Below are positions 25,594-41,269 of a DNA stretch of 52,361 nucleotides, in pieces; position 1 is the first letter of the stretch, and each line of letters begins with the position of its first letter. Both the position numbers and the translations under genes were made by a program. This DNA is from a virus. Lineage: Duplodnaviria > Caudoviricetes. The notes below the pieces were generated by a model. It saw only the letters and a program-made list of their open reading frames with translations. It ran no database searches and was not told where the DNA came from. Location: IMG/VR virus record IMGVR_UViG_3300046004_001366, positions 1 to 52,361 of that record, one strand, 5' to 3'.

Positions 25594-25901
25594 GGGAGGT
25601 GATCTTCGGGCAAATCGGTTCCAATGACTTGAGCCATTACCGTTGCCGCCCCCTGCTCCATCATCTCGATGTCAGTGAAGAGCGCTCCCTTGATTGCCCG
25701 ATAGCGGGCGATCTTGAGGCGGATTGCCATCATGTCGCCATCCAACGGCATTGTTTCAAGGATATCAGCGGCGAGCGCAGCAAGCTTGCCTTGTGCATCC
25801 GCTTGAAACCACTGCCAGCCGTGGCACCTCTTGAGCGACACGACAACGGCGGCATTCTTGAGGGCTTGACCCTGTGCAGTGATGGGTGGCGCGGTTATCA
25901 C
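25590..25901 (-). CDS. Hypothetical protein downstream of portal (possible head assembly factor)
   Basis: 4-bp overlaps with both neighbours. Confidence 0.6.
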   Translation of the reverse strand: MITAPPITAQGQALKNAAVVVSLKRCHGWQWFQADAQGKLAALAADILETMPLDGDMMAIRLKIARYRAIKGALFTDIEMMEQGAATVMAQVIGTDLPEDHLP

Positions 25902-28027
25902 TGTGCAACCGGTTGAGGCTGACTCGCGGCCATGAGTTGCTGCTCGGTGGGCAGGGTAAGAACGGTATCCACATCGCGGACTCCGTTCCCCTTGAGCCTT
26001 TGATGAAAGAGCGGAGCGAGATTCAGGCGAACTTCGGGAGGCAACTGATAGTACATTATCCCGGTTTGAATTGCCTGATCTGCCATAGCCACTTGCTGCT
26101 CGCCGTGCATACGGGTCAACTCAAGCCTGATTTGCCACTTGAATTGACGAAGGTCAGCGCCGGAAAGCTGCTTGATGAGTAGCGCGCCCTGGGGACCCAT
26201 GACATGAAATACCTCCTCGTCGCGAGCGTGAGCAACGGAGAGGTAGATGCAATCTTCAACCGCTTGAGCGATGCCAATCTCCAAGTGGGAGATGAGCGGG
26301 GCGAATTGTTCCTGTCCGCTGCGGTCGATGTTCTTCACGCCCGTAGCAAGCTTGGATGTGTCCAACCCGGCCATGGCGGCATCATTGGCATTCGCGACAC
26401 CAGAAAGGTTGGTCATCATCTGCTGCACGATGCCAAGCAACTCTTGCAGGGATGCGCCTTCAAAATCGTAGAGAGACACGACTTCGATGATATCCTCGAT
26501 GCGTGTCGTGGGATTGGCCTTGGTGTAAGTCTGCCCGCCATTCAGGACAAGCGCCGGATTGGCTGCGCCTTCCACGGTCAGTTTGGGATTCCAGCAAATG
26601 ACCTTGCCGGAGCGACTGGTGCTCATTTCCCATCGTGCAATCACCAAGTCGCTGAACCGCTGAAGTTGCCAGAAGGCACTAACGACGCTTTGACCATGCC
26701 AACGACCGTCCACCGGGTTCACGCGCACGGTGCGATACGGGCGGCGGCGGTTGCGATAGACGTTGGCAACATAGTCGATGAGGATTGGACGGTGCGTGTC
26801 CTTGTCGATCAAGACGACGATGTTCTCGCGCTGGCCGTCGTTGTTGGCATCAATCCACATGTGGCAGCGAATGGCATGTACCATTGCGTCACCACGCTGA
26901 GAGAGCTTCTCCATGCTGCTTTCTCCGAGAGATGCGCGGCCATCGCTGCCTTGGGCTTCTGTTTCGGTGGTGCGCCCGCTCACATCGCTCAAGAGAGCCA
27001 TGACCCGAGGATACTCCTTTTCATCCCACACGCCGATTTTCTCCAGCCTGCGAATGTAATCCTCGACGATCTCAATGGCCGGAATGTCGGTGTATTCGCC
27101 AATGAACTCCGCCTCGTCCAAGTTCTTGGCATTGAGAGGCACAAGCAAGTCGCGATGAGGAACGATCTCGATTTGTGGACCTGCATAAATGACGTTCTTC
27201 CGGCGCACCTTCGTTTCCAAGAAAGTGAGTTCTGCGAATGGCATTGGCGTTTCTCCATCGCGCTTGAGAACCATTCCCACTCCTTCAACAAGGGAGAACT
27301 CGTCTGTCTCGAAGATGTAATCACCATCATTCGCCAAAATTGGCTCTGCCGTGGTTGGATCAACGGCGACGTTGGCATAGGTCTCGTAATACTCGATGCG
27401 CTCGACTTCCTCGATGCGAAGCACGCACTCGCCACGGATGAAAGCTAACTCGACGGCTTTCTCGAACTGGCTCTTTGCCTGCGCTTCGTTGAGTTTGTAC
27501 TGTGCCCACTCATTCGCTGCCGTGGCAGTGTCCACGCTCAAGCCCTGCATTGAGGGAGGAACGGGGGAGGCTGCAACCCAGGGTTCACTTTGGAAAAAGT
27601 AGTTCTGCGCACGGGCGATCATCTGCTGAACAAAGCGCCGGGTGTGCGGTAGGTGGACGTTTTGCCCTTCGGCATAGATGCCGCCGACGAGACGCTTCCT
27701 CCAGTCAAATTTCTGGTGATAGACGAGATCCCACAAATCCCGCTGCGCCATGAACTTCATGCCCTCGACGCTCATGGGGTCTCCGCCTATGTCGTGCGTG
27801 AACTCAGGATCATCGAAACGACCACTGTTGCGCCCTGACTCGTTTTCTAGCTCAAGGGCAAAGTTGAGCGCTTTTTGGACAACAAACTCTTCCTGCTCTC
27901 GCGTGAGTTCAAGCCCACCTTGGAAGATGGCGATTGGCTCATGCGGATTTTCTTCCGTGGGAGTGTGGTCAGTGACGGGAACCCGTTGGAGAAACGCGGC
28001 GATCTGTGTGTCTGCGTTGTGGAGCAT
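25898..28027 (-). CDS. Portal protein (podovirus-type, 709 aa)
   Basis: Size and helical layout fit; contains RPY...NPVDGRWHGQSV...QLQ, MTNLSGV and SKLATGVK segments resembling P22/T7-like portals. Confidence 0.75.
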   Translation of the reverse strand: MLHNADTQIAAFLQRVPVTDHTPTEENPHEPIAIFQGGLELTREQEEFVVQKALNFALELENESGRNSGRFDDPEFTHDIGGDPMSVEGMKFMAQRDLWDLVYHQKFDWRKRLVGGIYAEGQNVHLPHTRRFVQQMIARAQNYFFQSEPWVAASPVPPSMQGLSVDTATAANEWAQYKLNEAQAKSQFEKAVELAFIRGECVLRIEEVERIEYYETYANVAVDPTTAEPILANDGDYIFETDEFSLVEGVGMVLKRDGETPMPFAELTFLETKVRRKNVIYAGPQIEIVPHRDLLVPLNAKNLDEAEFIGEYTDIPAIEIVEDYIRRLEKIGVWDEKEYPRVMALLSDVSGRTTETEAQGSDGRASLGESSMEKLSQRGDAMVHAIRCHMWIDANNDGQRENIVVLIDKDTHRPILIDYVANVYRNRRRPYRTVRVNPVDGRWHGQSVVSAFWQLQRFSDLVIARWEMSTSRSGKVICWNPKLTVEGAANPALVLNGGQTYTKANPTTRIEDIIEVVSLYDFEGASLQELLGIVQQMMTNLSGVANANDAAMAGLDTSKLATGVKNIDRSGQEQFAPLISHLEIGIAQAVEDCIYLSVAHARDEEVFHVMGPQGALLIKQLSGADLRQFKWQIRLELTRMHGEQQVAMADQAIQTGIMYYQLPPEVRLNLAPLFHQRLKGNGVRDVDTVLTLPTEQQLMAASQPQPVAQ

Positions 28028-28823: not shown

Positions 28824-29657
28824 TCAAAAGTTGCTCGCCTCATCATCGTCGGTGCCGCGCATGGAATCCCATTCGCCGTAGCACAGAGCCACGCCACCGG
28901 AACGCAGCCGGTCAACGATACGACTGCCCAGCCACTTCTTGACTTCCGTAGCGATGGCATTGCCAAGGAGGATCGACGGCAACCCGTTTTTGTGGCGACG
29001 GTCCAAGATGGCGAAAAGAATCTCCTCGCCATCCTTGGGCAAGTCAGTGAGGCAAATCTCATCCAGCACCAGCAACGCAGCCGTTGCGTAGGTCCGCACA
29101 ATCGCCTCCGTGGTGTCGGTCTTGTAGGCGCGATGATAGTCAGCGAACAGGCGGGCGCATTCGGCCCAGGAGACGGACTTGCCCTTGACGATGTACTGAA
29201 TGGCTACCGCTGCCGCAAGGTGTCCCTTCCCTATCCCCGGAGTCCCGGCCAAGATCAAGTTGCGCAAGCCTCCTGCTGCAAAGATGGAGGTCTTCTCCAA
29301 GAACGTGCTCGGATGAGCATAGCCTTTGCCCTCTTTGACGTGATTACGCTCGATCAAGAAATTGCTGAGAGTCGCGTGCCTTACGTCGGCTGGAATGCCT
29401 GCGGCTATCACCCGCTTCTTGCAGCGCTCAAGGAATGCCTCATGCTCACAGGTGGCACAGACATAAACCAGTTTGCCCGCCTGCCATGATGCTTCCCGGT
29501 TGAGCGCATTGAGCATTCCGCCATGGATGCCGCAAGGCATGGCTGCGGGGGCTGCGTCGATTTCCTGCTCGAACGCTATGCTTCGGGCACGAACGATTTC
29601 AAGCAGTCGGTCAAGGCTGTGCAGGGAGAAGGCTGAATCTGGTATTTCGGTGGTCAT
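28824..29657 (-). CDS. DnaC/IstB-like AAA+ helicase loader
   Basis: Walker A GTPGIGKG, Walker B LLVLDEI, RIVDRL; Cys motifs near the N-terminus; follows the initiator gene. Confidence 0.85.
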   Translation of the reverse strand: MTTEIPDSAFSLHSLDRLLEIVRARSIAFEQEIDAAPAAMPCGIHGGMLNALNREASWQAGKLVYVCATCEHEAFLERCKKRVIAAGIPADVRHATLSNFLIERNHVKEGKGYAHPSTFLEKTSIFAAGGLRNLILAGTPGIGKGHLAAAVAIQYIVKGKSVSWAECARLFADYHRAYKTDTTEAIVRTYATAALLVLDEICLTDLPKDGEEILFAILDRRHKNGLPSILLGNAIATEVKKWLGSRIVDRLRSGGVALCYGEWDSMRGTDDDEASNF

Positions 29658-29661
29658 AAAT

Positions 29662-30420
29662 TTAGAATTTGCCGATTTCTTCCGGTGTTTTGCCGCGTGT
29701 GTGCGATTCTGCGTCATAGGCCGGGTGACGAGGCGGACGGGTGCCGCTGGCTTGTTTCTGGCTTGGAAGCCACTTCTGCGCTTTCCAGTTCCTCATGCCC
29801 GCCTGCCAGTCCTTGCTTGGGTTGCTGCCGTTCTTCCATCCGTTCGCCGTCCAGTGGTCGAACATCGCAGAGCCATCACTAGCCGGTTGACCTATTTCGA
29901 CGGCGAAGGCTTCGAGTTCCTCTCGCGTCCCCTTGGCTTTTGATTTTGCCAAAGGGATTACAGGGATAACTTCCGAAGGAAGTAATAGAGACTGAGACTG
30001 AGAAGAGACTGAGACTGAGAGCTTTTCCAATTGAAAGCCGTCGCTTTTCTTTTCGCTTAACCCATTAGAAAGCGGTGGGTTTATTTGGCTATCATTTGGC
30101 TTTTTCGGTCTGCCGCCTTTTTTTCCGTTCTCGCTTTGGGTTTTGCGATAGTCGTTCAACTCTTCGCGAAGTGACTCCATTCGTTGATTAGCAAGCGTTA
30201 AGCCATCTTCCGAGGTAACAAACTTGGCAATGACATCGACCAGTTTGGATGCCTTGATGCCCGTGATTCTCTCGATCTTTGCCGAGTTATTTGGGACGCT
30301 TCCTTGCTGCCACTGGTAGCAGAGTAGCCGGATATATGCGCCGACTTCATGCGCCTCCATGAGCATGGTGCCGCCAATAAAATCAGCGGGATAGAATTGG
30401 AATGATGGAGATGTCTTCAT
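29662..30420 (-). CDS. Phage replication initiator (DUF1376/YdaU-like)
   Basis: PSFQFYPADF...EVGAYIRLLCYQW...SENGKKGGRP; C-terminal FDHWTANGWK...KDWQAGMRNW. Confidence 0.8.
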   Translation of the reverse strand: MKTSPSFQFYPADFIGGTMLMEAHEVGAYIRLLCYQWQQGSVPNNSAKIERITGIKASKLVDVIAKFVTSEDGLTLANQRMESLREELNDYRKTQSENGKKGGRPKKPNDSQINPPLSNGLSEKKSDGFQLEKLSVSVSSQSQSLLLPSEVIPVIPLAKSKAKGTREELEAFAVEIGQPASDGSAMFDHWTANGWKNGSNPSKDWQAGMRNWKAQKWLPSQKQASGTRPPRHPAYDAESHTRGKTPEEIGKF

Positions 30421-30424
30421 AATT

Positions 30425-30643
30425 TTATCTGGCAAGCCTCCACCAAGAGCGCTGCTTGATGGTTGAGGTTCGATGCTCGATGTAACCTTTTTTGCACAAC
30501 GCTCGAAGGATCACACAGGCGTTGTTTTGACAGCATCCAAACCAACTGCTGATTTCTCGCGTGGTGGGAAGGCGGTCCTCTTGGTGATGGAAATCCTTCA
30601 AGAACTCGAGTACTGCCTCTTGGCGTGGCGTTAGTTCAGTCAT
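30425..30643 (-). CDS. LexA-type winged-HTH DNA-binding protein (no peptidase domain)
   Basis: LTPRQEAVLEFL...PTTREIS..FG...LRALCKKGYI. Confidence 0.8.
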   Translation of the reverse strand: MTELTPRQEAVLEFLKDFHHQEDRLPTTREISSWFGCCQNNACVILRALCKKGYIEHRTSTIKQRSWWRLAR

Positions 30644-30662
30644 GGTCAGCCCTTAAAATGGC

Positions 30663-30765
30663 GCTCCCCACACAGAACAGAGGTCGAAAACCGTATCGCT
30701 CGGTATTTCTCTGTTCTGGCGGGGAGCTTTTTGTTGTCTGACATTGCGATAATTCCGTTTCGACG
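30663..30765. other. Structured leader / cis-regulatory RNA element
   Basis: GCTCCCC..CAGAACAGAG / CTCTGTTCTG..GGGGAGC stem, plus an alternative GTCGAAA / TTTCGAC pairing. Confidence 0.45.
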
Positions 30766-30808
30766 CGGTGGGCTAAAATACTTGGAAGATTGACACTGCA
30801 AAGAGTTT

Positions 30809-30833
30809 TATCCGTTTTTGATGGTTCTGGATA
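30809..30833. promoter_or_regulatory. TATCC-N15-GGATA palindromic site, copy 3
   Basis: TATCCGTTTTTGATGGTTCTGGATA, upstream of the lexA-like/replication operon. Confidence 0.55.
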
Positions 30834-32528
30834 TTAGAAGCGGGCAGAAGCCGCCATTGAGCCGTCGTTGATGGTGGCAATACGAAGCATCTTCTGGCGT
30901 GTGCGATGAATCATCTTCTCGGTCATGCTGCCCGCTACGAAGGGGATAAACTGCTGACTGGCTGATTTGCCGCCAACACGGTCAACCCGTCCCGTGGCCT
31001 GCTCCATTTTGATAACGTGATCCGTTGGCATGATGTAGGAGACCCGTGCGCGCCAGCCATTGACATCGTGCAGCGAAACGGAAGCGCCCCCGGCTCCAAT
31101 GTTGTTGACGAGAACGTGTTGCCTGTCCGCCTGAAACTCCCGCTCCCAATACTGCCGCTTCTTCAAGGGCTGCCCACCATAGAACCCGGCAGAGGTGTTC
31201 AGCAGCTTCGACAGTCCAATGCGGGACTCATTGAAGTTCATAAACACGGCGACGCTTTTCCCGTCGCGCACGTCTTTCTTGATGCGGTCGGCCAGATACG
31301 GCACCAGCAGCATTTCACACTTCTTCCACATCTGCATGTGAGCCTGCTGCTCTTTGATGCGGAGTTGCGGAGCGCTCATTTGCAGGGCGAGACGACGAAG
31401 CATGTCCTCGGTGGCTTTCCATTCAGCTTCAACCTTCGCGGCTTCGGGAATATCGAATGGCAGCGTTTCAATGGTGGTCTCGGGGCATTCTTCGCCCAAG
31501 TCCTGCTTCCTAACGCGAGCGCCACGCCACGGGAAAAGCTGAGTGTTGATGCGCAACAGGTGGTGGTGCTTACCGTCCCACACATAGCTTTTCCCTTTGT
31601 TGTAACAGCCATGGTTCACAAGGAAGCGATGCCAATCGTCATCGCCCTTGTGCAATCCTGAAATGCGCCCGGCAAAGCGCATCTCAATCGGGGATGTTGC
31701 TATGGTGGCTGAAGCGACAATGATCGGTATGCCCTGGCGGACTGCCGCCGAACAACAGCGCACAGTCAACGTGTCGTCATGCCTCAATGCCTGCGCTTCA
31801 TCCAGAATGATCACGATTTCGCCCGGGTGCTTCCATGTGAATTTGCCCGTGGCATCCATGGTCGCGATGTGATCACGGAAACCACCGCGAACCGCTTCAT
31901 AAGTCGAGATGAAATGCGGAGTGATGCCGAAGTGCTCGCAGGCGCGTTGCCAGCCTGCCGCCCCGACAGTCGGGCAAAGGATAGCCGGGTCGCGCCCCGT
32001 GGCGATGGCGGCAGCGAGATCCTGATAGGTCTTGCCAATGCCCATGTCTGAGAAGTCCACAGCGCCGGGGTATCCCCATTCTGCCCGGCCCTGCATCAGC
32101 GCACGGTAAATCTGGCGGGTTGGTATCACCTGATACCCGCGCAACTTCGCCTCGATTTCGCTCGGCAGGTCAGGCAGCACGATTTGACGAGGCGCAGGAG
32201 CGCTTAACGCTAGGGGTTGATCGGTTGGTGCTTTCCCAAGTGCGATTATCTTCTCGCGGCCAACAGGAGTCAGGGTCAAGCCAGCGGGAGTCTCAAGGAG
32301 CCACTGACGCAAGAACCAAGCGCCGTTGAGTAGGCAGGTTGAAAAGCCGCGCTCCAACCATGCGCGCTTGTGCTTTACCCATGCCTGCTTGAAGGCAAAA
32401 TCATGGCTGATACCAATCTTGAGTTCACGAAACCGGCAGGTGCCGTCACGGGTCAGCTTTTGATGGAGCGGAGGCAAGGCTAGCCATTGCAACTCCACGG
32501 GTGGAGATGGGTCGGTAATGATGCTCAT
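30834..32528 (-). CDS. SF2 (SNF2-like) helicase
   Basis: SDMGIGKT, ILDEAQ, SAT, GGASVSLH, QATGRVDR; start overlaps the intI stop (ATGA). Confidence 0.85.
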   Translation of the reverse strand: MSIITDPSPPVELQWLALPPLHQKLTRDGTCRFRELKIGISHDFAFKQAWVKHKRAWLERGFSTCLLNGAWFLRQWLLETPAGLTLTPVGREKIIALGKAPTDQPLALSAPAPRQIVLPDLPSEIEAKLRGYQVIPTRQIYRALMQGRAEWGYPGAVDFSDMGIGKTYQDLAAAIATGRDPAILCPTVGAAGWQRACEHFGITPHFISTYEAVRGGFRDHIATMDATGKFTWKHPGEIVIILDEAQALRHDDTLTVRCCSAAVRQGIPIIVASATIATSPIEMRFAGRISGLHKGDDDWHRFLVNHGCYNKGKSYVWDGKHHHLLRINTQLFPWRGARVRKQDLGEECPETTIETLPFDIPEAAKVEAEWKATEDMLRRLALQMSAPQLRIKEQQAHMQMWKKCEMLLVPYLADRIKKDVRDGKSVAVFMNFNESRIGLSKLLNTSAGFYGGQPLKKRQYWEREFQADRQHVLVNNIGAGGASVSLHDVNGWRARVSYIMPTDHVIKMEQATGRVDRVGGKSASQQFIPFVAGSMTEKMIHRTRQKMLRIATINDGSMAASARF

Positions 32529-33541
32529 GCTACCCTCCTTTCAAAAGGCGTGATGTTTGGCGCGCTGTGATTATGTGCTTGGTCCATTGGGCTGGTTCTA
32601 CGTGTTGTCAGGCGAGGGAGGCAGTGAGCGTAAATTTGTGTCGTCGTGACATGCTTGTGACCCATCACCTCTTGAAGTTCCTGAATAGGCATTCCCGACA
32701 TAAGCATTTCGGTGGCAAAGGAGTGTCTCAATGAATGGACGGTGACACGCTGATTGCCGCTCCATAAGCGAACCGCTGCCGAGATGGCCTTGCCTAACGT
32801 ATCACGGTGGACATGATGCCTGCGCACAATGCCAGAACGCGGGTCGCGGCTCTCTGTATTACCAGCCCATACCCAAAACCAAGGCCAATCCTTGCCGGTG
32901 AACTTGGTAGATGGAACTTCAACACCAGGACGATCATTGCGGCGGTCATGCTCCCACACTGCCCGCATCCGCTGCTCCTGCTCTTTGAGCGCTGGAATAC
33001 ACGACTCAGGCAGGAATGTGACACGGTCCTTATCCCCCTTCCCTGATCTGATTACAATCTGCCGTTGCGCATAGTGAATATCCTTCCAGCGCAGGCTAGC
33101 AAGATCGTGACTGCGTAACCCGGAGCCATAGCCAATCTCCGCCATGAGCCGGTTTTGACCTTTCATGCAGGCAAGTAGCGCCATCATGTCCTCATGCGCT
33201 AACCACACGGGGAGTTTCTTGGGCCTGCGCGCCTTCGCCCAAGTCCCAAGATCACCTAACGGCTTCTCAATGACATGACGATAATAGAACACCAATGCAT
33301 TACGAAACAGGTTCTCGGAAGCGATTGACCAATGACGGGCCTTTGACTCCACGTACAGCCGCGCCAGTTCCTCGGGTGGCAGGGCCGCAAATCCCGGAAC
33401 TCTCACAGAAAAACGCATGAAGGCGCGGAGATGCCCTGTGTAACTGCTCTCCGTTGTGATTGCCCGTGCGCTCTTCGATGTCGCCATGACAACCCGCATA
33501 CGTTGAATGCGTTGCTCGATGATGTGTTCGTAGTTTGTCAT
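32525..33541 (-). CDS. intI: Integron integrase
   Basis: Tyrosine-recombinase residues are intact (YGSGLR, GKGDKDR, HSLRHSFAT, MGH, TTQIY). Contains the IntI-specific insertion W-x-WFWVW...SRDPRSGIVRRHH and RRPKKLPV; adjacent to an attC array. Confidence 0.93.
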   Translation of the reverse strand: MTNYEHIIEQRIQRMRVVMATSKSARAITTESSYTGHLRAFMRFSVRVPGFAALPPEELARLYVESKARHWSIASENLFRNALVFYYRHVIEKPLGDLGTWAKARRPKKLPVWLAHEDMMALLACMKGQNRLMAEIGYGSGLRSHDLASLRWKDIHYAQRQIVIRSGKGDKDRVTFLPESCIPALKEQEQRMRAVWEHDRRNDRPGVEVPSTKFTGKDWPWFWVWAGNTESRDPRSGIVRRHHVHRDTLGKAISAAVRLWSGNQRVTVHSLRHSFATEMLMSGMPIQELQEVMGHKHVTTTQIYAHCLPRLTTRRTSPMDQAHNHSAPNITPFERRVA

Positions 33542-33544
33542 ATT

Positions 33545-33579
33545 ATTGCGAAGTTCTTCCGTAGAATCATCTGTTCTGA
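33545..33579 (+). other. attI: attI-like recombination site (crossover G^TT at 33573/33574)
   Basis: GTTCTGAGAATC (33573-33584) is the exact reverse complement of cassette 1's R'' end GATTCTCAGAAC (33832-33843). No attC hairpin precedes it, and it lies about 30 bp from the intI start. Left boundary is uncertain. Confidence 0.75.
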
Positions 33580-33815
33580 GAATCCAAGACGCGGCGGGCT
33601 TCTTCCAGATACGTCCAGTTGATGCCTTCCCGGTCGGTGATGCGGATTGACGCGCCTTCCGCCCATAGAATCGCCTTGCGGAGAGCCTCTTTCAGTTGTT
33701 CGCGTGCGATGAAGTGATGCACGGCTTCTTCTTGGTGCGCAGTCAGCTCTTTTTTGAGTATGCTGTTTTCGTGTTCCAGCAGCTTGTTTTTCTCTTCTGG
33801 GGTGTATTGATACAT
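33567..33815 (-). CDS. Cassette 1 ORF, hypothetical 82 aa (stop codon lies in attI)
   Basis: MYQYTPEEKNKLLEHEN...LDSQNR*; the last codons cross the R' junction. Confidence 0.7.
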   Translation of the reverse strand: MYQYTPEEKNKLLEHENSILKKELTAHQEEAVHHFIAREQLKEALRKAILWAEGASIRITDREGINWTYLEEARRVLDSQNR

Positions 33816-33820
33816 GGTGG

Positions 33821-34192
33821 TTATTCGGGCTGATTCTCAGAACAAGCCGCGTCATCCGACGGCGATAACGCTCCGGTTTGTTTTCGGGCATCTGCGTCGC
33901 CGCGGATGCGCTCATCGTTGGGCGGCTCGGCTGGCGCTTCGGGTTGTTCGTCCATTGCCTGCTGCCGTTGCATTTCCGTGTAGTATTCTTCTTCGGACGG
34001 CTCTTGGGGCTTTGGCCGCTGTGCCCAAAGTTCAGCAGAGGCCGCGCTTTCAGCGTCCTGTCCGTTGTAGTAGCGGTCTTGCACTCGGTCTGGGTCTATG
34101 CGGTCAGTATTGCCACCGCTTCTCCACACCTCGTAGAAGACATCACTCTCGTATCTCCGTTGTTCTTCGCGTCTTTCTTCGTAGGATTTCAT
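33821..34192 (-). CDS. Cassette 2 ORF, hypothetical 123 aa (reads through attC1)
   Basis: MKSYEERREEQRRYESDVFYEVWRSGG...; the C-terminal ~30 aa (PPNDERIRGDADARK...CSENQPE) come from the attC1 bottom strand and the edge of cassette 1. Confidence 0.7.
   Translation of the reverse strand: MKSYEERREEQRRYESDVFYEVWRSGGNTDRIDPDRVQDRYYNGQDAESAASAELWAQRPKPQEPSEEEYYTEMQRQQAMDEQPEAPAEPPNDERIRGDADARKQTGALSPSDDAACSENQPE
33837..33923 (+). other. attC: attC site 1 (87 bp)
   Basis: R'' TCAGAAC, 5-bp spacer, L'' GCG(T)CATCCG pairing with CGGATGCGC, GGCGA/TCGCC stem, R' GTTGGGC. Confidence 0.88.
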
Positions 34193-34214
34193 ATTCGTTT
34201 ATCGTTGATTCGCC

Positions 34215-34306
34215 GCCCAACCAGTCACTTCAGCGAACCCGGCTGGGCGCTCTGGTTAGCAATCGGAGCGTCACTCGCGCCGGGTCGCTGAGTTCCATCG
34301 TTCCAC
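34215..34306 (+). other. attC: attC site 2 (92 bp)
   Basis: R'' GCCCAAC-CAGTC-ACT(T)CAGCG(A)ACCCGGC ... GCCGGGTCGCTGAGT-TCCATC-GTTCCAC; extrahelical bases in canonical positions. Confidence 0.92.
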
Positions 34307-34344
34307 CAAGAAAGGGATCGGCCCTTCCTTGGTGGCAGTTCGGT

Positions 34345-34632
34345 TTAGACGAGTTTCCGCCCTCCGTTTTCATCATCAGCGATCTTCACGCCGGGAACGA
34401 AGGTCAACGCCTCCGCCAGCGAATAGGTGCCGTCGATGTTCTTTTGCTGGGTCGTGACTTGGACGACGCAACCATGCGGTGTTTCCATCGCCTTAGTGCT
34501 TTTCATCCATCCCTCGTTTTGCGACGAGGCTTTGCATAGCAGCCGGAACGTGTCTCCGTTGCCGACGACTTTGATGTCTGGGACGTTTTGGCGAGCGCCG
34601 GAAACGTCTGAATTGTGCAGTGTCTTTTCCAT
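34345..34632 (-). CDS. Cassette 3 ORF, conserved phage-type hypothetical protein (95 aa)
   Basis: MEKTLHNSDVSGARQNVPDIKVVGNGDTFRLLCKASSQNEGWMKSTKAME...GCVVQVTTQQ...AEALTFVPGV; resembles a family I recall from phage genomes. Confidence 0.75.
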   Translation of the reverse strand: MEKTLHNSDVSGARQNVPDIKVVGNGDTFRLLCKASSQNEGWMKSTKAMETPHGCVVQVTTQQKNIDGTYSLAEALTFVPGVKIADDENGGRKLV

Positions 34633-34642
34633 AATATCAGAG

Positions 34643-34766
34643 GTGGAACAAGTAGCGGCAGACCAACCAGCGACCGCTCCGAGTTCCAAGTTTTCAGGTG
34701 TTAGTTTGGTTGGTGTGAGTATCGGCGCTCGCCCCCGTCGCTGTTGGCTGCGCATGGACGTTCGGC
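34643..34766 (+). other. attC: attC site 3 (124 bp)
   Basis: R'' GTGGAAC-AAGTA-GCG(G)CAG(A)CCAAC(C)AGCGAC ... GTCGCTGTTGGCTGCGC-ATGGAC-GTTCGGC. Confidence 0.88.
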
Positions 34767-34996
34767 TCAGTTTCGGGGATATAACAGACCATATGTTCCG
34801 GCACTCCGTACAGCACATTGCAGAGAGTCAGCGAGTTGCGCCATGTTGCGCGCTCCACCGTCGCAAGGCCGTTGCCAGTCGTGGACACTTCCACAGACTC
34901 GCCAGTTGCGAAGTTGCAATATTGTCCAGCCAGCGGAGCCGCAAGCCGAACAAATCGGATGCAGGCAACGGCTCGTATGGAGTTGGTAGCGTTCAT
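34694..34996 (-). CDS. Cassette 4 ORF, hypothetical 100 aa (starts in the attC4 remnant, ends inside attC3)
   Basis: ATG overlaps the TGA of the upstream gene (34993-34996); spans all of cassette 4. Confidence 0.55.
   Translation of the reverse strand: MNATNSIRAVACIRFVRLAAPLAGQYCNFATGESVEVSTTGNGLATVERATWRNSLTLCNVLYGVPEHMVCYIPETEPNVHAQPTATGASADTHTNQTNT
34945..34975 (+). other. attC: Truncated attC site 4 (R''-L'' arm only)
   Basis: GCCGAAC-AAATC-GGATGCAGGCAACGGC. AGCCGAAC complements GTTCGGCT at 34760. No matching right arm was seen downstream. Confidence 0.7.
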
Positions 34997-35232
34997 CCAA
35001 TAAGAAGAGTTTCCGGGATGGCGGACGTGATCTCGAAGATGAAGTCGTTCGCTGCCTTCTCCACGCCGTCGATGATGGCACCCTTGGCCATCACTAGTAC
35101 CTTCTCTGCCACATCGTCAGGCATGATCATTGTCGTCGTGGACTTGTCGCCGTTGATGGAGATTTCGGCCACAAGCTTGCCTTTGTTTTCGCCGTATTGG
35201 GCCACTTCAATCTTGAGCGATTTGAATTTCAT
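34993..35232 (-). CDS. Hypothetical protein
   Basis: 79-aa ORF co-oriented with the operon. Confidence 0.65.
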   Translation of the reverse strand: MKFKSLKIEVAQYGENKGKLVAEISINGDKSTTTMIMPDDVAEKVLVMAKGAIIDGVEKAANDFIFEITSAIPETLLIG

Positions 35233-35325
35233 ATCGGTGGTCTGAGGCTTGTTTTAGGGTTGCTGCTATCATTCTCATCGTTGGCAGAGAAGGGGTCGGA
35301 CCTTTCCCTGCCATTGTTTATTTCC

Positions 35326-35805
35326 TCAATCTTCCTTGGGAGATTCGCCAACTGCCTCTTCAGGCAGCAGGCTCATTTGACGCTCCTCACTGGTGATGTC
35401 CCGCACCTCAATGACTTCGAGTGTGTCACTGCGGACGAGTGTCTTTTTCTCGGGGTGGTGGATGCGCTCGCCGCTGGCGGTGTCAATGCCTGCGCATTCG
35501 TAGATCCAGTGGCATTCCACCGGGCGCTCTTCGCGGCCATCGCTCACAATGCCGCTCAAGCGAGATTGATCGACTTCGACGGTTTCAATGCGCGCCTTCC
35601 ATTGGCTTGCGGATGCCTTGGCATCGCGGGTCAGGTTGGCGATCTGCGGCACCGTCTCGGCGAGCTTGCGGGAGAACATGCTGAGTTCGTTCGTGTTCAG
35701 CACAACGAACAACGACCGGCGCTCGATTGATTCGGGCCATTCGTATTGCGGGACGGCAGGGGTATTGATGGTTTCATCTTGGGGGTCTTGCTTTTTGGTA
35801 GCCAT
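35326..35805 (-). CDS. Hypothetical protein
   Basis: 159 aa with a coiled-coil and an acidic tail; co-oriented with the operon. Confidence 0.65.
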   Translation of the reverse strand: MATKKQDPQDETINTPAVPQYEWPESIERRSLFVVLNTNELSMFSRKLAETVPQIANLTRDAKASASQWKARIETVEVDQSRLSGIVSDGREERPVECHWIYECAGIDTASGERIHHPEKKTLVRSDTLEVIEVRDITSEERQMSLLPEEAVGESPKED

Positions 35806-35830
35806 GTTGGTATCGGATTGTTACGGATGT

Positions 35831-36298
35831 TTATGTGTCCAGGCAGGTTATGCGGATGCGTGCGCCCGCTGCCTGATCGGTCGCCGCATAGTTTTTGCTG
35901 GTGCCACCAGAGCAAACTTGAGCGTCATCACGCCAGATTTGCAGTTCGTTGGCTCCAAGGGCATCGAGGATAGCCTTCTCGCAGTTGTCGCGATCCGGCT
36001 TCGATGTGTGGTAAGTGGGCGCGTCCTGCTTGATGCCGGACTTGCGAAAGTGTGCCTTCGGGCGTGGGAACCAAAGGGCGATGTCCACACGTAGCGGACC
36101 TGTGAAGATGGGGGCTGTAAGACCTGCCGGATTGATGCCAGCAGATAGCAGCGCATCCTTGGCGGCATGGCGAACGCATGATTTCCATGAGTCGGCTGTG
36201 CCGGGGTCATACATGCCTGCGCGTTTTCCGCGTATGCAGGCGCGTGGACGTGGTTGGCCTTTCGGTTCGCCCGTGATGTAAATTTCGAGCGACTTCAT
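35831..36298 (-). CDS. rusA: RusA-family Holliday junction resolvase
   Basis: GEPKGQPRPR; KPDRDNCEKAILDAL...WRDDAQV. Confidence 0.9.
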   Translation of the reverse strand: MKSLEIYITGEPKGQPRPRACIRGKRAGMYDPGTADSWKSCVRHAAKDALLSAGINPAGLTAPIFTGPLRVDIALWFPRPKAHFRKSGIKQDAPTYHTSKPDRDNCEKAILDALGANELQIWRDDAQVCSGGTSKNYAATDQAAGARIRITCLDT

Positions 36299-36585
36299 GG
36301 CAGGAGGTTGTGATGCTTTACGAGTTCAAGCCACTCTTGGCCCTGTTTGGTGATTGTGTAGTTGGCCTGCTCGCCATCGCGGACCAGTTCAACGAGCGAG
36401 TTCCTGATAAGCGGCCCCATGACTTGCAAAATCGCTGATGGGCTGTTGCCGCCGTACTTAACTCGTTTTTCCAAAGCGGCGGGCGACTTGGCGATCTCCG
36501 CAAGGGCAACGGCAGCGCTATATCCTACGTTGCGGCGGTGAATGCCAAGTTTTTGGGTGAGCAGTGTGAATGTGGGTGCGTCCAT
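36295..36585 (-). CDS. Winged-helix DNA-binding protein
   Basis: MDAPTF...LIRNSLVE...YTITKQGQEWL (MarR-like wing). Confidence 0.55.
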   Translation of the reverse strand: MDAPTFTLLTQKLGIHRRNVGYSAAVALAEIAKSPAALEKRVKYGGNSPSAILQVMGPLIRNSLVELVRDGEQANYTITKQGQEWLELVKHHNLLP

Positions 36586-36599
36586 TATATCATGTGGGT

Positions 36600-36776
36600 T
36601 TATGGTTTTGATGCCGACTGCTCTTGCTCCCGAGGCTCTTCTTTCGATGAGCCAAGCGGGACGAAGAAGACTTGAGCAGTCGGCAAATTCTGGCATTGGC
36701 ACGGCTTCAAGAGTCCGGTGCCTGCATTGGTGATGATTTTGCCTGTTCCGAGGCAGTGAGTACATGTCTTGCTCAT
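36600..36776 (-). CDS. Small zinc-finger protein (58 aa)
   Basis: MSKTCTHCLGTGKI...PCQC. Confidence 0.5.
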   Translation of the reverse strand: MSKTCTHCLGTGKIITNAGTGLLKPCQCQNLPTAQVFFVPLGSSKEEPREQEQSASKP

Positions 36777-36780
36777 GGCG

Positions 36781-37779
36781 TTAGTCGGCGAGCACCCACC
36801 GGCCTTTCTCACCGGCTTCGAGTTCATAGGCGGGCCAAATGCGGCGGATGACGGCAAAGTTTTCCGTCGTGTTCTCAGGGCATCCAGCCTCGATGTAGTT
36901 GCGTAGGCAGTCCAGAAAGGTATCAACTCGGGAAAAGCCTTCTGGAATGCCTAACGCTTTCCGGGCATTCTCGATGCCTTTGCAGATTGTCGCGTCCATT
37001 GGAACGTCGTAAACGCGGCACATTGCGGGACGTGGATATTTGGAATCATCCGCTTTGGATATGGCGACGAATGTAAATTTAGCGACGTGGAGGTTGAACC
37101 TTGCCATGAGCAGTTCGTGGAGGTCCGCATACCATGCGGCTTGCAGGAAATACCCGAATTGCCATGCGTCTTTGGCGAAGTCGGCGACGTGGCGCGATGT
37201 CGTCTTGATGTCCGACAGGTAGCGACCATGACGCGGCAGGATGTCCACGCGCCACTTAACCCAGCATTGCCAGCGTGGATGAAACACGAAACCTGACGCC
37301 TCGGTGTGAATATCATCAAGCTCGCTCATCGCGTCCGGGTTGGAGTGCAGGGCTCGCTGGAGATCCTTACAAACGAGCATGTAGTCGTGAAAGCTCTCTG
37401 GCGTGACAATGATACGGCCGGGATGCAAGGCTGACGCTTCCTGCCATGCTTCCGCTCCCTTTTTGGTATCCTTGCCGTAGGGTTTTTCGGTGCGTGGGTT
37501 GATCGGGATGTCAGCGACGGCGAACTTCTCCTGCCAAGATAACTCGGGTTCCAAGGCAACCATGTGGACGAGTGTGCCAATGGTCAGCGCGTCGGTGTCT
37601 TTGTGCTCTGCCGTGAGGCTGGCGAACATCTCGGCGGCAGTCCGGCACTTCATCAGACTCGCGTTGACCGCAGGGAAGGCGTGGTACTCGTCTGCTGATA
37701 CGTCTCGATAGCCATTGGCACCGGGTATTGGAGACCCAGGCAAAGCAAGGTTGGGGTTGGTGTAGTCGCTCCAGTTCAT
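36781..37779 (-). CDS. RecE/Exonuclease VIII-like PD-(D/E)XK nuclease (DUF3799-like)
   Basis: EYHA...S; IGTLVHMVALEP; KWRVD...SDIKTT; YFLQAAWY. Confidence 0.8.
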   Translation of the reverse strand: MNWSDYTNPNLALPGSPIPGANGYRDVSADEYHAFPAVNASLMKCRTAAEMFASLTAEHKDTDALTIGTLVHMVALEPELSWQEKFAVADIPINPRTEKPYGKDTKKGAEAWQEASALHPGRIIVTPESFHDYMLVCKDLQRALHSNPDAMSELDDIHTEASGFVFHPRWQCWVKWRVDILPRHGRYLSDIKTTSRHVADFAKDAWQFGYFLQAAWYADLHELLMARFNLHVAKFTFVAISKADDSKYPRPAMCRVYDVPMDATICKGIENARKALGIPEGFSRVDTFLDCLRNYIEAGCPENTTENFAVIRRIWPAYELEAGEKGRWVLAD

Positions 37780-38030
37780 TGTTTTACCTCCCGTGCTGCA
37801 ATCATGGCATCTGCGTATTCATAGGCACCGCTTGCTGTTTGCCGGTCAATCTCGCTGATGCCCACAAACTGCGTTTTAAGAGGAGATTTAGCGATGATGG
37901 CTTGCATTGCCTGCCCTGCGAATAAGTCGCGGAGGGTCATGCCGAATTCCATTGGTGCCATTGGCTCTCCTTGTGCGTTGAGTGGTTGGCAAGGGTGGAT
38001 TGGCCCGCCATCGTTGATTGGAGTGCTCAT
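37776..38030 (-). CDS. Conserved phage hypothetical protein
   Basis: INDGGP...GMTLRDLFAGQAM...AYEYADAMIAAR. Confidence 0.75.
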   Translation of the reverse strand: MSTPINDGGPIHPCQPLNAQGEPMAPMEFGMTLRDLFAGQAMQAIIAKSPLKTQFVGISEIDRQTASGAYEYADAMIAAREVKQ

Positions 38031-38332
38031 TCGGCACCTCCTTTCTTTGGCTCAGGCCGGAGATGACGAGCAATGTCGGCGATCTCGTTGCATAGCTTGT
38101 CGTGCGGTGACGCATCTGGCGCGCCGTCCGCGTAGCCTTCGGTCATGTCGTAAATACAGCCTAACGCCTCACGGAGAGGCTTGGCGGCGACATACGCGCC
38201 GTTTTCCCAAGCAATTTTTGTCATGCGGCGGACGTGTTGCTCTGCATCCTCGCTGGGCAAGGGTGCCATGGCGGAACCTTCGTTGTGCCACCACAATTCA
38301 AACGGAGTGTATGGAGTTGGGGCGCTCATTAT
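38027..38332 (-). CDS. Hypothetical protein
   Basis: MSAPTPYTPFELWWHNEGS...; overlaps both neighbours by 4 bp. Confidence 0.6.
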   Translation of the reverse strand: MMSAPTPYTPFELWWHNEGSAMAPLPSEDAEQHVRRMTKIAWENGAYVAAKPLREALGCIYDMTEGYADGAPDASPHDKLCNEIADIARHLRPEPKKGGAE

Positions 38333-39120
38333 GCGGCTCCTTTCCCCTTGAGGCTGCGGGCGAGAACATTGAGTTGCTCGCTGTGACATTCCTCGAACTT
38401 GGCAGGCAATCCAAGCTTGGGCAGGAAGCCAACCAACTCAGCCCAGCTTGTGATGCCGCTCTGTTCGGCGCGCTGACCGACAAGTTCAGCCATCCATCCG
38501 TCGATTCCGACAGATCGGGAACCGTGCAACCAGAGTTTGCCAATCGCGGCTTCCGACAAGTCTCCAAGCGTGCGCTGACCGGTCTCGTCGGACGGGTCGG
38601 CAAGCGCGGCCCATGTTCCAGCAGTTTCCTCCGTGCCAGCACCAAGGAGCGGCACATGGCAGAACTGTGACCAATGAGCGTCATCAGCGGCTTTCAGGCC
38701 AATGGTCTCGCGCATAGGCTGGCCGAGTCGCACGGCGTCATCATCATCACCCGTGATCAAATGGAAGTAATCAACGAGGGCGTAGCGCTTGCCGTAGGTA
38801 TGCGACATGCCTTGCCGCTGCGTGAGATTGACGCCGCGATTACCCTCGGGGAACAGGACTTCAAAAGGCACGAAAACGACATCTTCGCCGTGTGATACCT
38901 GCATGATGAGATGTTGTATCCATGCTTCACCGTCCTTGCGGATGGTGGAGGGGGCAAAACCAACGGCAATGTTTGCCTCATTGAGCGCGGGTTGCAGGAT
39001 GTCCATGACATCGGCATAGGACGCATAGGCAGAGTTGATGCCGGTATTCTTGGCCGTCTTGATGACGACGAGGCACTTGGAGCGGACCGCAGCAACTGCG
39101 GCGAGTAGGGAGGGAGGCAT
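38329..39120 (-). CDS. erf: ERF-family single-strand annealing protein
   Basis: KTAKN...YASYADV...PAL; QRQGMSHTYGKRYAL...GDDDDA; located near the RecE-like nuclease. Confidence 0.8.
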   Translation of the reverse strand: MPPSLLAAVAAVRSKCLVVIKTAKNTGINSAYASYADVMDILQPALNEANIAVGFAPSTIRKDGEAWIQHLIMQVSHGEDVVFVPFEVLFPEGNRGVNLTQRQGMSHTYGKRYALVDYFHLITGDDDDAVRLGQPMRETIGLKAADDAHWSQFCHVPLLGAGTEETAGTWAALADPSDETGQRTLGDLSEAAIGKLWLHGSRSVGIDGWMAELVGQRAEQSGITSWAELVGFLPKLGLPAKFEECHSEQLNVLARSLKGKGAA

Positions 39121-40373
39121 TATAGGGAGGATGTTTGGGTTTCAATCCATGTTGCGAATGATGCGACCTTGTGGGCGATCTCTGCGGCGACTCGCTTGCC
39201 GTCTTCGGTGGTTGCGGTTGGCACGGCAAGGCCGCGAACCTGATCGGCGAATGCCTTCAACTTGGTTTTGTCTGGTGCGCGTGCTGCTTTCGCTTCGGCA
39301 TCAGCTTTCGCTTTTGCTTCAGCAGCGATTCGGGCTTTTTCCAGTCTGATGCGCTCGGCTTCGGCTAGGCGCTCAGCTTCACGGGCGGCTTCACGGGCGG
39401 CGGCTTCACGGGCGGCGGCTTCGCGCTCCGCCTTGAGCAATGCTTCTTGTGCGCGCAGTTTTGCAGCAGCTTCAGCCTCTACCTTCTGGCGTTCAGCCTC
39501 CAGCTTCCGGCGCTCAGCTTCGCGCTCGGCGGCGATACGATCAGCTTCAGCTTTAGCGGCAAGGCGTTCAGCTTCGCGTTCCTCTTCAATCTTCCGGCGT
39601 TCTGCTTCGGCGGCAAGGCGTTCAGCTTCGCGTTCGGCAGCAAGGCGCTCTGCCTCAATGGCTGCGGCTGTCGCTTCGGCTCGAAGCCTCTCCATTTCGA
39701 GGCGGACACGCTCGCGCTCCGCTGCTTCTTCGGCTTCACGCAATGCCCTGGCTTCGGCTTCTGCTTTTTCCTTCGCAATGCGCTCCTCCTCGGCTTTGCG
39801 AGCAGCTTCAATCTTTGCCTCATGCAGCAGGCGATAGTCCGCTAGCAATTGGTCAAATCCTTCAGGAGTCAGAATATCGAAGGGTGGCAACGCTTGGCCC
39901 TCGGTGACGTATGGAGCCAAAGCGGCAGTACGCTCGATGATGATGCGCGCTTTTTGCTCGGCAAGCAGGCGAGCGGCGAAGTTCTCTTGTTCCTCAAGGT
40001 AGGTTTCAAGGGGAACGATTGCGGCGAGCAAAATGGCGTTGGTTCCGTCGATAGCGCGACCCATGAGGAGGCTTTCTTCCTTCAGCTTCTTCCGCACCTT
40101 CTCAGCCTCGACGCGGATTGCCTTGAGTTCGAGACGTGCCACGCGGGCGAGTTTCATGTCACCGGTTTGGTCGGCACTCGTCACCTTGATGGACATTGCC
40201 TTCTGTCTCCATTCGTCCGCCTTAGCAAATGCGGCGGCAAACCCATCTCGGATATTGGTCAGCATCGACGGGGCCAACTGGTCGGCATGAGGAATGGTGA
40301 TCTCGGTGGACTGCGCGCCAGTTGTTTCAGGCGGCAGGACTTCTATGGTGGGGGTAGTTTCAGTATCTTGCAT
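39120..40373 (-). CDS. Long coiled-coil protein with E/A/R-rich repeats
   Basis: MQDTETTPTIEV...; EAERLAA and EAAAR repeats; TAATG coupling to erf. Confidence 0.75.
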   Translation of the reverse strand: MQDTETTPTIEVLPPETTGAQSTEITIPHADQLAPSMLTNIRDGFAAAFAKADEWRQKAMSIKVTSADQTGDMKLARVARLELKAIRVEAEKVRKKLKEESLLMGRAIDGTNAILLAAIVPLETYLEEQENFAARLLAEQKARIIIERTAALAPYVTEGQALPPFDILTPEGFDQLLADYRLLHEAKIEAARKAEEERIAKEKAEAEARALREAEEAAERERVRLEMERLRAEATAAAIEAERLAAEREAERLAAEAERRKIEEEREAERLAAKAEADRIAAEREAERRKLEAERQKVEAEAAAKLRAQEALLKAEREAAAREAAAREAAREAERLAEAERIRLEKARIAAEAKAKADAEAKAARAPDKTKLKAFADQVRGLAVPTATTEDGKRVAAEIAHKVASFATWIETQTSSL

Positions 40374-40402
40374 ATGTGTGTTGGGGTGAGTTGAGTTCTG
40401 GT

Positions 40403-40780
40403 TCAGTCTTCTGCCGTTCCGGTGGTGTGGGCTTCTTTGTGCCAAGCGATGCGGTCCTTGTTCTCTCCGCAGAGGTATTCTTCGGCCTCGCTCCATAGCG
40501 ACTCCTTCAGGTATTCATCCACTCGGCGACCTTCGACGCGGAAGCCTTCAAGCTTCCATTCTCCTTCCTTGCCCGAGACTTCGAGGACGAGCGGAGAGTG
40601 TTCGGGCCAGTCAATCAGGTCGTGATTGCGTGCCAAAGCGTCATCACGCAGGTCAGAGCGACAGCCAAGCTTTTCAGCCCAAGATGCGATGTCAGTTGCG
40701 AGTGATCTCAGCACTTCCGGCATTGCCTCAAAGGATGATTGAGATTGCAAAGGCCGCGATAGGATATGTGCAGGGGTCAT
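40403..40780 (-). CDS. Hypothetical protein
   Basis: 125-aa ORF co-oriented with the early operon. Confidence 0.6.
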   Translation of the reverse strand: MTPAHILSRPLQSQSSFEAMPEVLRSLATDIASWAEKLGCRSDLRDDALARNHDLIDWPEHSPLVLEVSGKEGEWKLEGFRVEGRRVDEYLKESLWSEAEEYLCGENKDRIAWHKEAHTTGTAED

Positions 40781-40801
40781 AATGGTTCCGGGTTGTAATG
40801 G

Positions 40802-41258: not shown

Positions 41259-41269
41259 GGTGGTATCGG

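Follow-up and report, generated by a model that had tools for sequence, protein, structure and literature searches.

We describe here an integron that lies inside a virus genome. The window, that is, the whole stretch of DNA that was analysed, is the linear 52,361-bp IMG/VR virus record IMGVR_UViG_3300046004_001366, whose completeness is estimated at 81%. Integrons are bacterial tools for stockpiling and shuffling genes, including genes for antibiotic resistance and anti-phage defence. The one in the window consists of an integrase gene (intI), an attachment site beside it (attI) and an array of cassettes, each with an attC site, of which three are complete and the fourth is truncated. It is embedded in a block of minus-strand genes that runs, in order, through an Erf-like protein, an exonuclease VIII-like protein, RusA, small open reading frames (ORFs), intI, a helicase, a primosomal protein, a DnaC-like loader and a portal protein. 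Phage genes flank it on both sides, with Erf, exonuclease VIII and RusA on one and the helicase, primosomal protein, loader and portal on the other. A sequence-only reading of the window had placed an integron inside a phage early/replication operon, and this placement is supported by the site scans, a conserved attI, the phage context and a contig that spans the joins. We consider it likely that this is a genuine phage-resident integron in a temperate phage, and not a host fragment at a prophage edge.

Integrase and attachment site

The intI gene (32525-33541, minus strand) encodes an integron-type tyrosine recombinase of 338 aa (TIGR02249, PDB 2a3v). Its stop codon overlaps the ATG of the phage helicase by 4 nt (ATGA), with intI ending at 32525 and the helicase starting at 32528, just as had been read from the letters. 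The best family of the protein is the TIGR02249 integron integrase, matched with 236.2 bits over positions 12-314 of 315, and the Xer families score far below it (XerA 117.6, XerC 97.8 and XerD 97.2 bits) and short of their own equivalog cut-offs (97.8 vs 335 for XerC, 97.2 vs 330 for XerD). Identity to IntI1 is 39.5%, and the closest solved structure is VchIntIA (IntI4; PDB 2a3v, E 1.1e-36). The IntI-specific insertion of 2a3v is aligned by WPWFWVWAGNTESRDPRSGIVRRHH, at query residues 219-243, which include DP.S and RRHH; the earlier description of an intact IntI with the integron-specific insertion is thus upheld. Compared across 24 clade members (50-90% identity), the protein shows no variation at the catalytic residues R143, K171, H269, R272, H295 and Y304. 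The same is true of W221, P234, H242 and H243 in the insertion, residues that presumably contact extrahelical bases.

A phylogeny of the integrase had been suggested as a check. In our tree all 85 IntI-like rows separate from the 8 Xer-like rows with 100% support, and the clade of the window (6 rows, 100% support) is nested in a clade of 34 rows (96%) that comprises 27 IMG/VR rows, 6 near relatives and one contig of a metagenome-assembled genome (MAG; L008). Host-type IntIs, and bacterial IntIs other than L008, lie outside the 34-row clade. The tree is a quick search, however, and because its viral loci were fetched by their likeness to this IntI, the sampling is biased toward viral contigs; a mostly viral 34-row clade therefore does not prove a phage-only lineage. 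Among Verrucomicrobiota, IntI-like genes occur in 84 of 301 genomes, and only in the genome holding L007 does one exceed 47% identity to the window IntI; host IntIs are 33-47% identical to it. In the MAGs to which L007 and L006 belong, canonical IntIs (336-368 bits) accompany the phage type (225-238 bits in L005, L006 and L007). As a separate observation, the integrases of three IMG/VR records (L199, L200 and L201) cluster together and match the window IntI with the same statistics as IntI1 of a class 1 integron (L165); class 1 integrons are therefore present among records that are filed as viral.

The attI site (33543-33575, plus strand) carries the motif TTATTGCGAA-N12-AATCATCTGTT, with the crossover between G33573 and T33574 (G/TT). 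Its GTT, at 33573-33575, is 32 nt from the intI ATG, in good agreement with the attI-like GTT that had been noticed about 30 bp from the start of the gene. We found the motif in 11 loci, of which six are relatives with 67-86% IntI identity and five are IMG/VR contigs added by pattern search. Beyond the GTT the 11 loci continue in 8 different ways, with unrelated sequences; since 8 different first-cassette sequences follow a conserved attI, we conclude that insertion at G/TT has happened repeatedly. Variable cassette content among relatives had been named as something to look for, and it is found here at the first position of the array. When the window was compared by tblastn with L005, L006, L007, L085 and L086, intI was the only shared gene.

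Read on the gene (minus) strand, attI is AAC-AGA-TGA-TT, and at each of the 8 distinct junctions the ORF of the first cassette stops there (..N-R-stop). Upstream of this TGA its frame is open for 28-221 codons in 8/8 junctions, two of them running to the contig end, and it is the longest of the three frames in 6/8. The ATG within AGATGA begins a short upstream ORF (uORF) of the pattern MIL.K.FAI..; in the window it reads MILRKNFAII, and its stop overlaps the intI ATG. In 7/8 junctions (5/6 near relatives) the uORF is of another length or does not overlap intI. The stop/uORF region occupies 33538-33575 in the window and has a counterpart in L085, L005, L086, L006, L007, L247 and L250.

attC sites, cassettes and cargo

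Three complete attC sites follow attI on the plus strand (bulged bases are bracketed below). The first, attC1 (33837-33923), consists of R'' ..CAGAAC, a 5-nt spacer, the stem GCG[T]CATCCG[A]CGGCGA, a 5-nt spacer and R' GTTGGGC; it has 15 bp and 2 bulges in a structure scan and a fold z-score of -2.68. In attC2 (34215-34306) the R'' is GCCCAAC, followed by a 5-nt spacer, the stem ACT[T]CAGCGA[A]CCCGGC, a 6-nt spacer and R' GTTCCAC, again with 15 bp in the scan. The third site, attC3 (34643-34766), has R'' ..TGGAAC, a 5-nt spacer, the stem GCG[G]CAG[A]CCAAC[C]AGCGAC, a 6-nt spacer and R' GTTCGGC, with 17 bp and 3 bulges. All bulges are single bases in the 5' arm of the plus strand only (top strand T,A / T,A / G,A,C). 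Class 1 attC sites have the same top-strand plan: an R'' with AAC at its end, a spacer of 5 nt, an L'' in which 3 bp are followed by an extra base, L', a spacer of 6 nt and GTT, with the extra base located in the 5' arm. Three full hairpins with canonical extrahelical bases had been claimed. The sites are indeed complete and their bulges one-sided, but the identity of the bulged bases departs in part from the canonical.

The structure scan used a grammar of AAC, 4-6 nt, 3 bp, a 1-nt bulge in the 5' arm, a stem, 5-7 nt and GTT. Over both strands of the 52,361 bp it gave three matches, attC1 to attC3, all on the plus strand and within 1 kb of intI, whereas 1,506,687 bp of other loci gave 4 matches at the same threshold (84 at a looser one). 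As positive controls, 3/3 class 1 attC sites were recovered, and three Alteromonadales arrays yielded 8, 11 and 4 sites, all on the strand opposite intI. Across 80 IMG/VR IntI loci 168 matches fell upstream on the strand opposite intI; the intI strand had 3 there, and 16 matches fell downstream. In 50/80 of these loci at least one canonical attC match was present. Two covariance models were also used. R1, trained on 26 bacterial attC sites that are mostly from Alteromonadales, found 41 sites in 42 related loci, 40 opposite the intI strand and 1 on it; the structure scan found many more. R2, trained on these 41 sites from other loci, was run unfiltered on the whole window (104 kb searched). It ranks the three sites 1, 2 and 5, with ends and strand identical to those of the structure scan; attC2 is the top match in the window (33.9 bits, E 1.9e-5) and attC1 is second (17.0 bits, E 0.11 over the whole window). 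R2 further finds four sites upstream of intI in L007 (E 0.0013-0.022).

The polarity of the array follows from three independent marks: the plus strand is the attC top strand because it holds the bulge-carrying arm, because of where attI lies and because each attC is distal to the start of its cassette. The opposite polarity, in which the minus strand would be the attC top strand and the array would run toward intI, was considered and rejected in view of the same bulges in the plus-strand 5' arms, the attI beside intI and the attC sites distal to cassette starts. The geometry of the platform is canonical, with attI at the 5' end of intI, the attC top strands opposite intI and running away from it, and each attC at the attI-distal end of its cassette.

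The fourth site is the left half (R''-spacer-L'') of an attC, at 34944-34975 on the plus strand, cut in the loop. A 27-mer within it (34949-34975) is found exactly in 12 other IMG/VR contigs and in L085, and in at least 10 of these 13 other copies it is followed by a recognisable right arm and GTT, in the place of which the window has the 3' end of the small ORF o79. The half-site recognised earlier is a true left half, and other viral contigs carry the complete form of its attC type. This 27-mer type is nearly identical across the 12 IMG/VR contigs (L252-L263), which come from different samples, and L085. In most copies its loop carries CAT/ATGA, which on the gene strand is a start and a stop; as judged from the sequence, an attC of this type would be translated into an N-terminal peptide common to the genes that carry it, with its loop serving as a joint for translational coupling.

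Each cassette begins with a sequence that complements its own R''. Cassette 1 (33574-33917) holds o82 (33567-33815, minus strand) and attC1; its start GTTCTGAGAATC complements R'' over 12 nt, or 13 with a flanking T/A pair, and forms a perfect 13-nt inverted repeat (33572-84/33832-44). Cassette 2 (33918-34300) holds attC2 and the body of o123 (33821-34192, minus strand), an acidic protein whose tail runs into attC1; its start GTTGGGCGGC complements R'' GCCGCCCAAC over 10 nt, a perfect inverted repeat at 33917-26/34212-21. In cassette 3 (34301-34760), which holds a minus-strand gene of the Lockin family and attC3, the start GTTCCACC complements R'' GGTGGAAC over 8 nt (34300/34642). Cassette 4 (34761-34996), with o100 (34694-34996, minus strand) and the half attC, starts with GTTCGGCT, complementary to R'' AGCCGAAC over 8 nt (34760/34944). 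Pairs of 8 nt are by themselves at chance level in 2 kb, and it is their positions that carry the weight. The match of each cassette start to its own R'' had been pointed out before and holds over 13, 10, 8 and 8 nt; to the adjacent R' the match is 3-4 nt long, the AAC/GTT core and at most one nucleotide more. Read by eye, the rule extends to relatives, with 8, 8, 9 and 7 nt in L007, 8 and 8 in L085 and 10 in L005. Circular cassettes that are cut at G/TT leave this footprint. Of the four cassettes that had been counted, three are complete and the fourth is truncated.

What the sequence-only reading overlooked is the orientation of the cassette genes, all of which share the strand of intI and are antisense to attC: all four cassette ORFs are on the minus strand, opposite the attC top strand. 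To call the coding strand, we took all ORFs of at least 45 aa in the arrays of 18 related viral loci and the window. The 120 ORFs on the intI strand have 48 PHROG families at E <= 1e-5, and the 138 ORFs on the opposite strand have 0. Pfam matches of the 120 include C5, N6/N4 and Dam methylases, Mom, RNA ligase, DUF3850, HTH_3, a DnaG zinc ribbon and an Acb2/Tad1 hairpin domain. Five control arrays, four of them bacterial and one from Shewanella prophage M16-3, have the sense ORF as the longer one in 24/25 cassettes. The same longest-ORF comparison in the IMG/VR arrays favours the antisense ORF in 77 cassettes and the sense ORF in 31, with the control 25 subtracted; it is noisy at the prevailing guanine-plus-cytosine content of 54-63% and is superseded by the PHROG test. 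Guanine-plus-cytosine content by codon position is not decisive for the cassette ORFs. In one relative, L239, successive ORFs of the intI strand cover the array, overlapping one another by 4 nt inside the attC sites.

The gene of cassette 3, o95 (34345-34632, minus strand; 95 aa; PF26760), matches the structure named 'Lockin' (PDB 9p8l) with 108.9 bits (E 7.8e-31) over residues 2-85. It has 4849 homologues of about 96-100 aa, with PF26760 in all 120 among the matches listed, and it falls in Atlas clusters named Lockin that are mostly viral. As reported in the sections drawn on here of bioRxiv 10.1101/2025.07.12.664507, Lockin proteins are anti-Thoeris sponges that sequester the Thoeris signals 3'cADPR and His-ADPR. 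On the strength of this homology, cassette 3 encodes a member of this sponge family, and its product is predicted to bind 3'cADPR. Together with the DNA methylases, Mom and Acb2/Tad1-like proteins of the related arrays, it suggests that at least part of the cargo is counter-defence. In IMG/VR, an attC ends 41-53 nt upstream of the Lockin gene in 5 of 68 loci (3 distinct), and in one of them (L304) an IntI-like gene lies just downstream. The flanks of these attC-linked loci fail to align with those of the window, so that movement of the same Lockin cassette cannot be claimed. In L304 (1792-3158) the attC ends 53 nt upstream of Lockin and the IntI-like gene follows about 290 nt after it on the same strand, with 32% identity to the window IntI; there, therefore, Lockin is the first, reversed cassette of a different integron lineage. 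A 14-bp hairpin at 34303-34335 (93% paired, 5-nt loop, no T-run after it) lies just inside cassette 3, about 10 nt past the Lockin stop. As to the other cargo, o82 has 5 database homologues (64-98% identity) and no family, the PDB search gave no match for o123 or o82, and o123 also had no usable Atlas match.

Known systems and competing explanations

The platform shares much with canonical integrons, both class 1 and the sedentary chromosomal integrons of Vibrio, Shewanella and Alteromonadales. The likenesses include the IntI insertion, attI at the 5' end of intI, the G/TT crossover, the R''/L''/L'/R' boxes with 5/6-nt spacers, extrahelical bases in the R''-L'' arm, attC top strands opposite intI and cassette starts that complement their own R''. 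Unlike them, it has its cassette genes on the attC bottom strand, read toward intI; its attI, 32 nt from the intI ATG, leaves neither room for nor sign of a divergent cassette promoter (Pc); intI is translationally coupled to a phage helicase; and the carrier is a phage. The IntI score below the family cut-off also sets it apart. In the Treponema denticola-type reverse integrons (the inverted-integrase group), intI and cassette genes are likewise co-oriented. The window differs from these in that intI (minus strand) is opposite the attC top strands (plus strand), the array is located upstream of intI and the flip concerns the genes within the cassettes; at the intI stop, where the reverse layout would place its array, the helicase begins. 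A Treponema-type layout, with attC-like matches downstream of intI on the intI strand, is seen in L232 and L243 (also L230 and L215). L231, L232 and L243 form an IntI clade of their own, next to the IntI of the MAG that holds L006 and apart from the clade of the window.

The premise of the sequence-only reading that integrons are normally chromosomal or borne by plasmids and transposons is out of date. In the sections of Qi et al. 2023 (PMC9892861) drawn on here, 3 complete integrons and one In0 are reported among 10,705 phage genomes, the cases being Vibrio phage Va_90-11-286_p16, P1 phage-plasmid with class 1 integrons and Shewanella prophage M16-3. These are described there as host chromosomal subsets at prophage ends or as transposon-borne class 1 integrons, with IntIs of host type (75% identity to V. 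cholerae IntIA, 95.3% to S. oneidensis IntI), and DNA methyltransferase genes are noted in the phage attC clusters. The integron in the window is like these cases in being a complete integron within a phage genome. It is unlike them in that diverged phages have the IntI clade, attI and reversed cassettes linked to their replication modules; at the M16-3 locus, by contrast, the genes are co-oriented with attC, and the sense ORF is the longer one in 4/4 cassettes. Of earlier descriptions, our literature search, which did not extend to supplementary tables, turned up only the phage-borne integrons of Qi et al. 2023 and the reverse integrons of the Treponema type, neither of which combines a canonical platform with flipped cassette genes in phage replication operons. 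The phage-resident form with reversed cassettes thus appears to be undescribed.

The association with phage replication genes extends to relatives. In L007 the gene after intI is a primase, followed by a gpA terminase and a lambda-type portal, and in L239 primase/DnaB and then TerL follow. The next gene is a phrog_62 helicase in L190, a primase in L238 and ParB-like in L225, and in L193 TerL lies about 2 kb downstream of intI. The ORFs downstream of intI in L242, L171 and L176 gave no PHROG match, and that of L196 matched only families of unknown function. Parts of the region are held by thirteen lake-water runs, six of which hold half or more. A contig of 2,482 nt from X4, a run not flagged as a candidate source of the record, spans 32375-34856 with 0 differences. 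Since it joins the helicase, intI, attI and cassettes 1-3, this contig argues against the chimeric join that had been raised as a possible refutation.

Several results weigh against our interpretation, and they have to be set against the explanations that they would favour. The locus might not be an integron at all, if an Xer-like recombinase, or one of phage type, served some other purpose such as dimer resolution, integration or inversion and happened to lie beside hairpins that are RNA or transcription signals. IntI does fall short of the curated TIGR02249 cut-off (236.2 vs 265 bits), and the hairpins stand at gene junctions of the operon, where they would fold in the mRNA. R1 gave no match in the window at E <= 10, the E of 0.11 for attC1 over the whole window is borderline, and attC3 is weak under R2 (8.5 bits, E 8.4, rank 5 of 6) and folds no better than shuffles; the scan grammar, moreover, was written after the sites were known, and the training loci of R2 were chosen through this IntI. 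We treat the blank of R1 as low sensitivity for this attC type, rather than as a refutation, because it found 41 sites in the related loci where the structure scan found many more. In the attC-model check that had been asked of the hairpins the two models differ, R2 matching at the same coordinates as the scan. The own-R'' rule at every cassette, a conserved attI with 8 different junctions exactly at GTT, one-sided bulges with 5/6-nt spacers as in class 1 attC, and the presence of a separate integrase in the window make a recombinase with another job a very improbable explanation. It is just as improbable that a prophage has lately and passively taken up a fragment of a host chromosomal integron, or that assembly joined host integron DNA to phage DNA. 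Integrons are frequent in the Verrucomicrobiota sampled (84/301 genomes), the MAGs holding L006 and L007 carry canonical IntIs, and the published phage cases are captures, to go by the sections of PMC9892861 drawn on here; IMG/VR contigs can contain non-viral DNA, and phage genes were checked in about 8 loci. Yet this integron is internal, coupled translationally to the helicase and with phage genes on either side, its layout of array, intI and primase/helicase recurs in diverged relatives, and the host IntIs lie outside the 34-row clade at 33-47% identity. Its cassette genes are reversed, unlike 24/25 control cassettes, and the X4 contig spans the joins in a run not flagged as a source.

It is also conceivable, if unlikely, that the integron is a fossil, a platform that was once active in the phage lineage and whose array is now a set of fixed early genes among which IntI no longer moves cassettes. 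The broken attC4 and the weak score of attC3 would fit this, as would the fact that o123 and o100 cross cassette borders into the neighbouring attC. Because both read into that attC, moving them would alter their tails, and the array may now be fixed. Cassette-skipping joints or circles were not seen in the assembled Logan contigs of 4 runs, assembly being a step that drops rare forms, and the contigs over the array are all identical or from other contexts. Against a fossil, IntI keeps its catalytic residues and its insertion unchanged across the 24 clade members (50-90% identity), wholly different cassettes occupy the same attI in relatives with 67-86% IntI identity, and attC1 and attC2 retain their full architecture. 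In our reading the integron may still recombine today.

We propose the following mechanism for such a phage-resident integron. Because the cassette genes lie on the attC bottom strand, the reading direction of the array is toward intI, and the array would belong to the phage early operon and be transcribed together with intI and the replication genes. A scan of 32400-41500 for sigma-70-like promoters gave 0 sites, which also counts against us, so it is the packing of the genes that argues for an operon; a terminator scan of the same interval was at chance level. When the early operon fires, IntI would be made alongside the replication genes, and it would act on folded attC bottom strands, which in this phage are the gene-sense strand, and recombine them with attI at G/TT. 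Replication may be the source of the single-stranded DNA (ssDNA). Incoming cassettes would be inserted directly upstream of intI, and recombination between attC sites would excise them. For each incoming gene, attI would supply a stop (AAC-AGA-TGA) and the overlapping ATG of a uORF that leads to, or past, the intI start.

From this we hypothesize, with confidence evenly divided, that the window represents a phage-native integron lineage, widespread in freshwater phages, that would serve in counter-defence exchange. In other words, reversed cassettes would form one unit under an early promoter, attI and many attC loops would act as stop/start joints, and IntI would be timed with replication ssDNA. 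Phage anti-defence or 'moron' regions of early operons are similar in holding small, fast-changing genes, including counter-defence genes, upstream of replication genes. They differ in that the variable genes of the window are bounded by attC sites and lie beside a dedicated recombinase and attI, which offers a defined mechanism of exchange instead of illegitimate or homologous recombination. If true, part of the rapid turnover of phage early genes would be explained by such a mechanism, and co-infecting phages or prophages could swap cassettes for Lockin, Acb2/Tad1-like sponges, methylases and Mom. Bacterial integrons are reported to store anti-phage defence cassettes (abstract of PMC12614218), and with phage-kept integrons carrying counter-defence cargo, both sides of the arms race would be using the same recombination machine. 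Reversed cassettes beside intI would then be a signature for new anti-defence genes, each unknown cassette being a candidate. The reversed design would also be a natural experiment on how far attC and attI tolerate translation and can be used as coupling signals.

Phage neighbourhood and contig depth

Immediately upstream of the array, the small backbone ORFs o79 and o159 (34993-35805, minus strand) gave no matches in family searches; the o79 stop overlaps the o100 start (ATGA) within the broken attC4 loop. They are followed by rusA (35831-36298, minus strand), a Holliday-junction resolvase gene (PF05866 RusA, E 5.4e-21) that forms the upstream phage flank of the operon, and then by the genes for the exonuclease VIII-like protein (36781-37779, minus strand) and the Erf-like annealing protein (38329-39120, minus strand). 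On the other side of intI lie the phage DNA helicase (30834-32528, minus strand; phrog_62, E 1e-13), the primosomal protein (29662-30435, minus strand), the DnaC-like loader (28824-29717, minus strand) and the portal (25898-28027, minus strand). A separate tyrosine recombinase of the ordinary phage-integrase type (43476-44711, minus strand; phrog_1, E 1.9e-26) is presumably the phage's own integrase, and a terminase-like gene is found at 48513-50306. This gene set, with a separate integrase and a terminase-like gene, leads us to regard the carrier as a temperate phage with its own integrase. An Rfam search of 30000-38000 at E <= 1 gave only a chance cyano_tmRNA match (20.1 bits, vs a gathering score of 70) and no attC-like family.

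Contig depth in the lake metagenomes is uneven along the phage. In X4 one contig diverges just left of 34760, where cassette 4 starts, and a 148-nt contig over 34827-34974 has a depth of 113x vs about 10x for the phage, which hints that cassette 4 occurs in other contexts. In four lake metagenomes the summed contig depth over 34806-35072 and 37743-38000 is far above that of the rest of the phage (in X4, 377 and 44.8 vs roughly 9-15 in most other bins), and many contigs break off at 34943/34944, 34974-34980, 37776 and 37943/37944. These two intervals are conserved pieces common to many other genomes.

Finally, a plus-strand ORF of 5,944 aa (7362-25196) matches the Pfam families InPase (E 9.8e-41) and LPD37 (E 1.6e-69), the latter a 'large polyvalent protein associated domain', and weakly SNF2. 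By these domains it resembles the giant polyvalent proteins that phages and conjugative elements carry.

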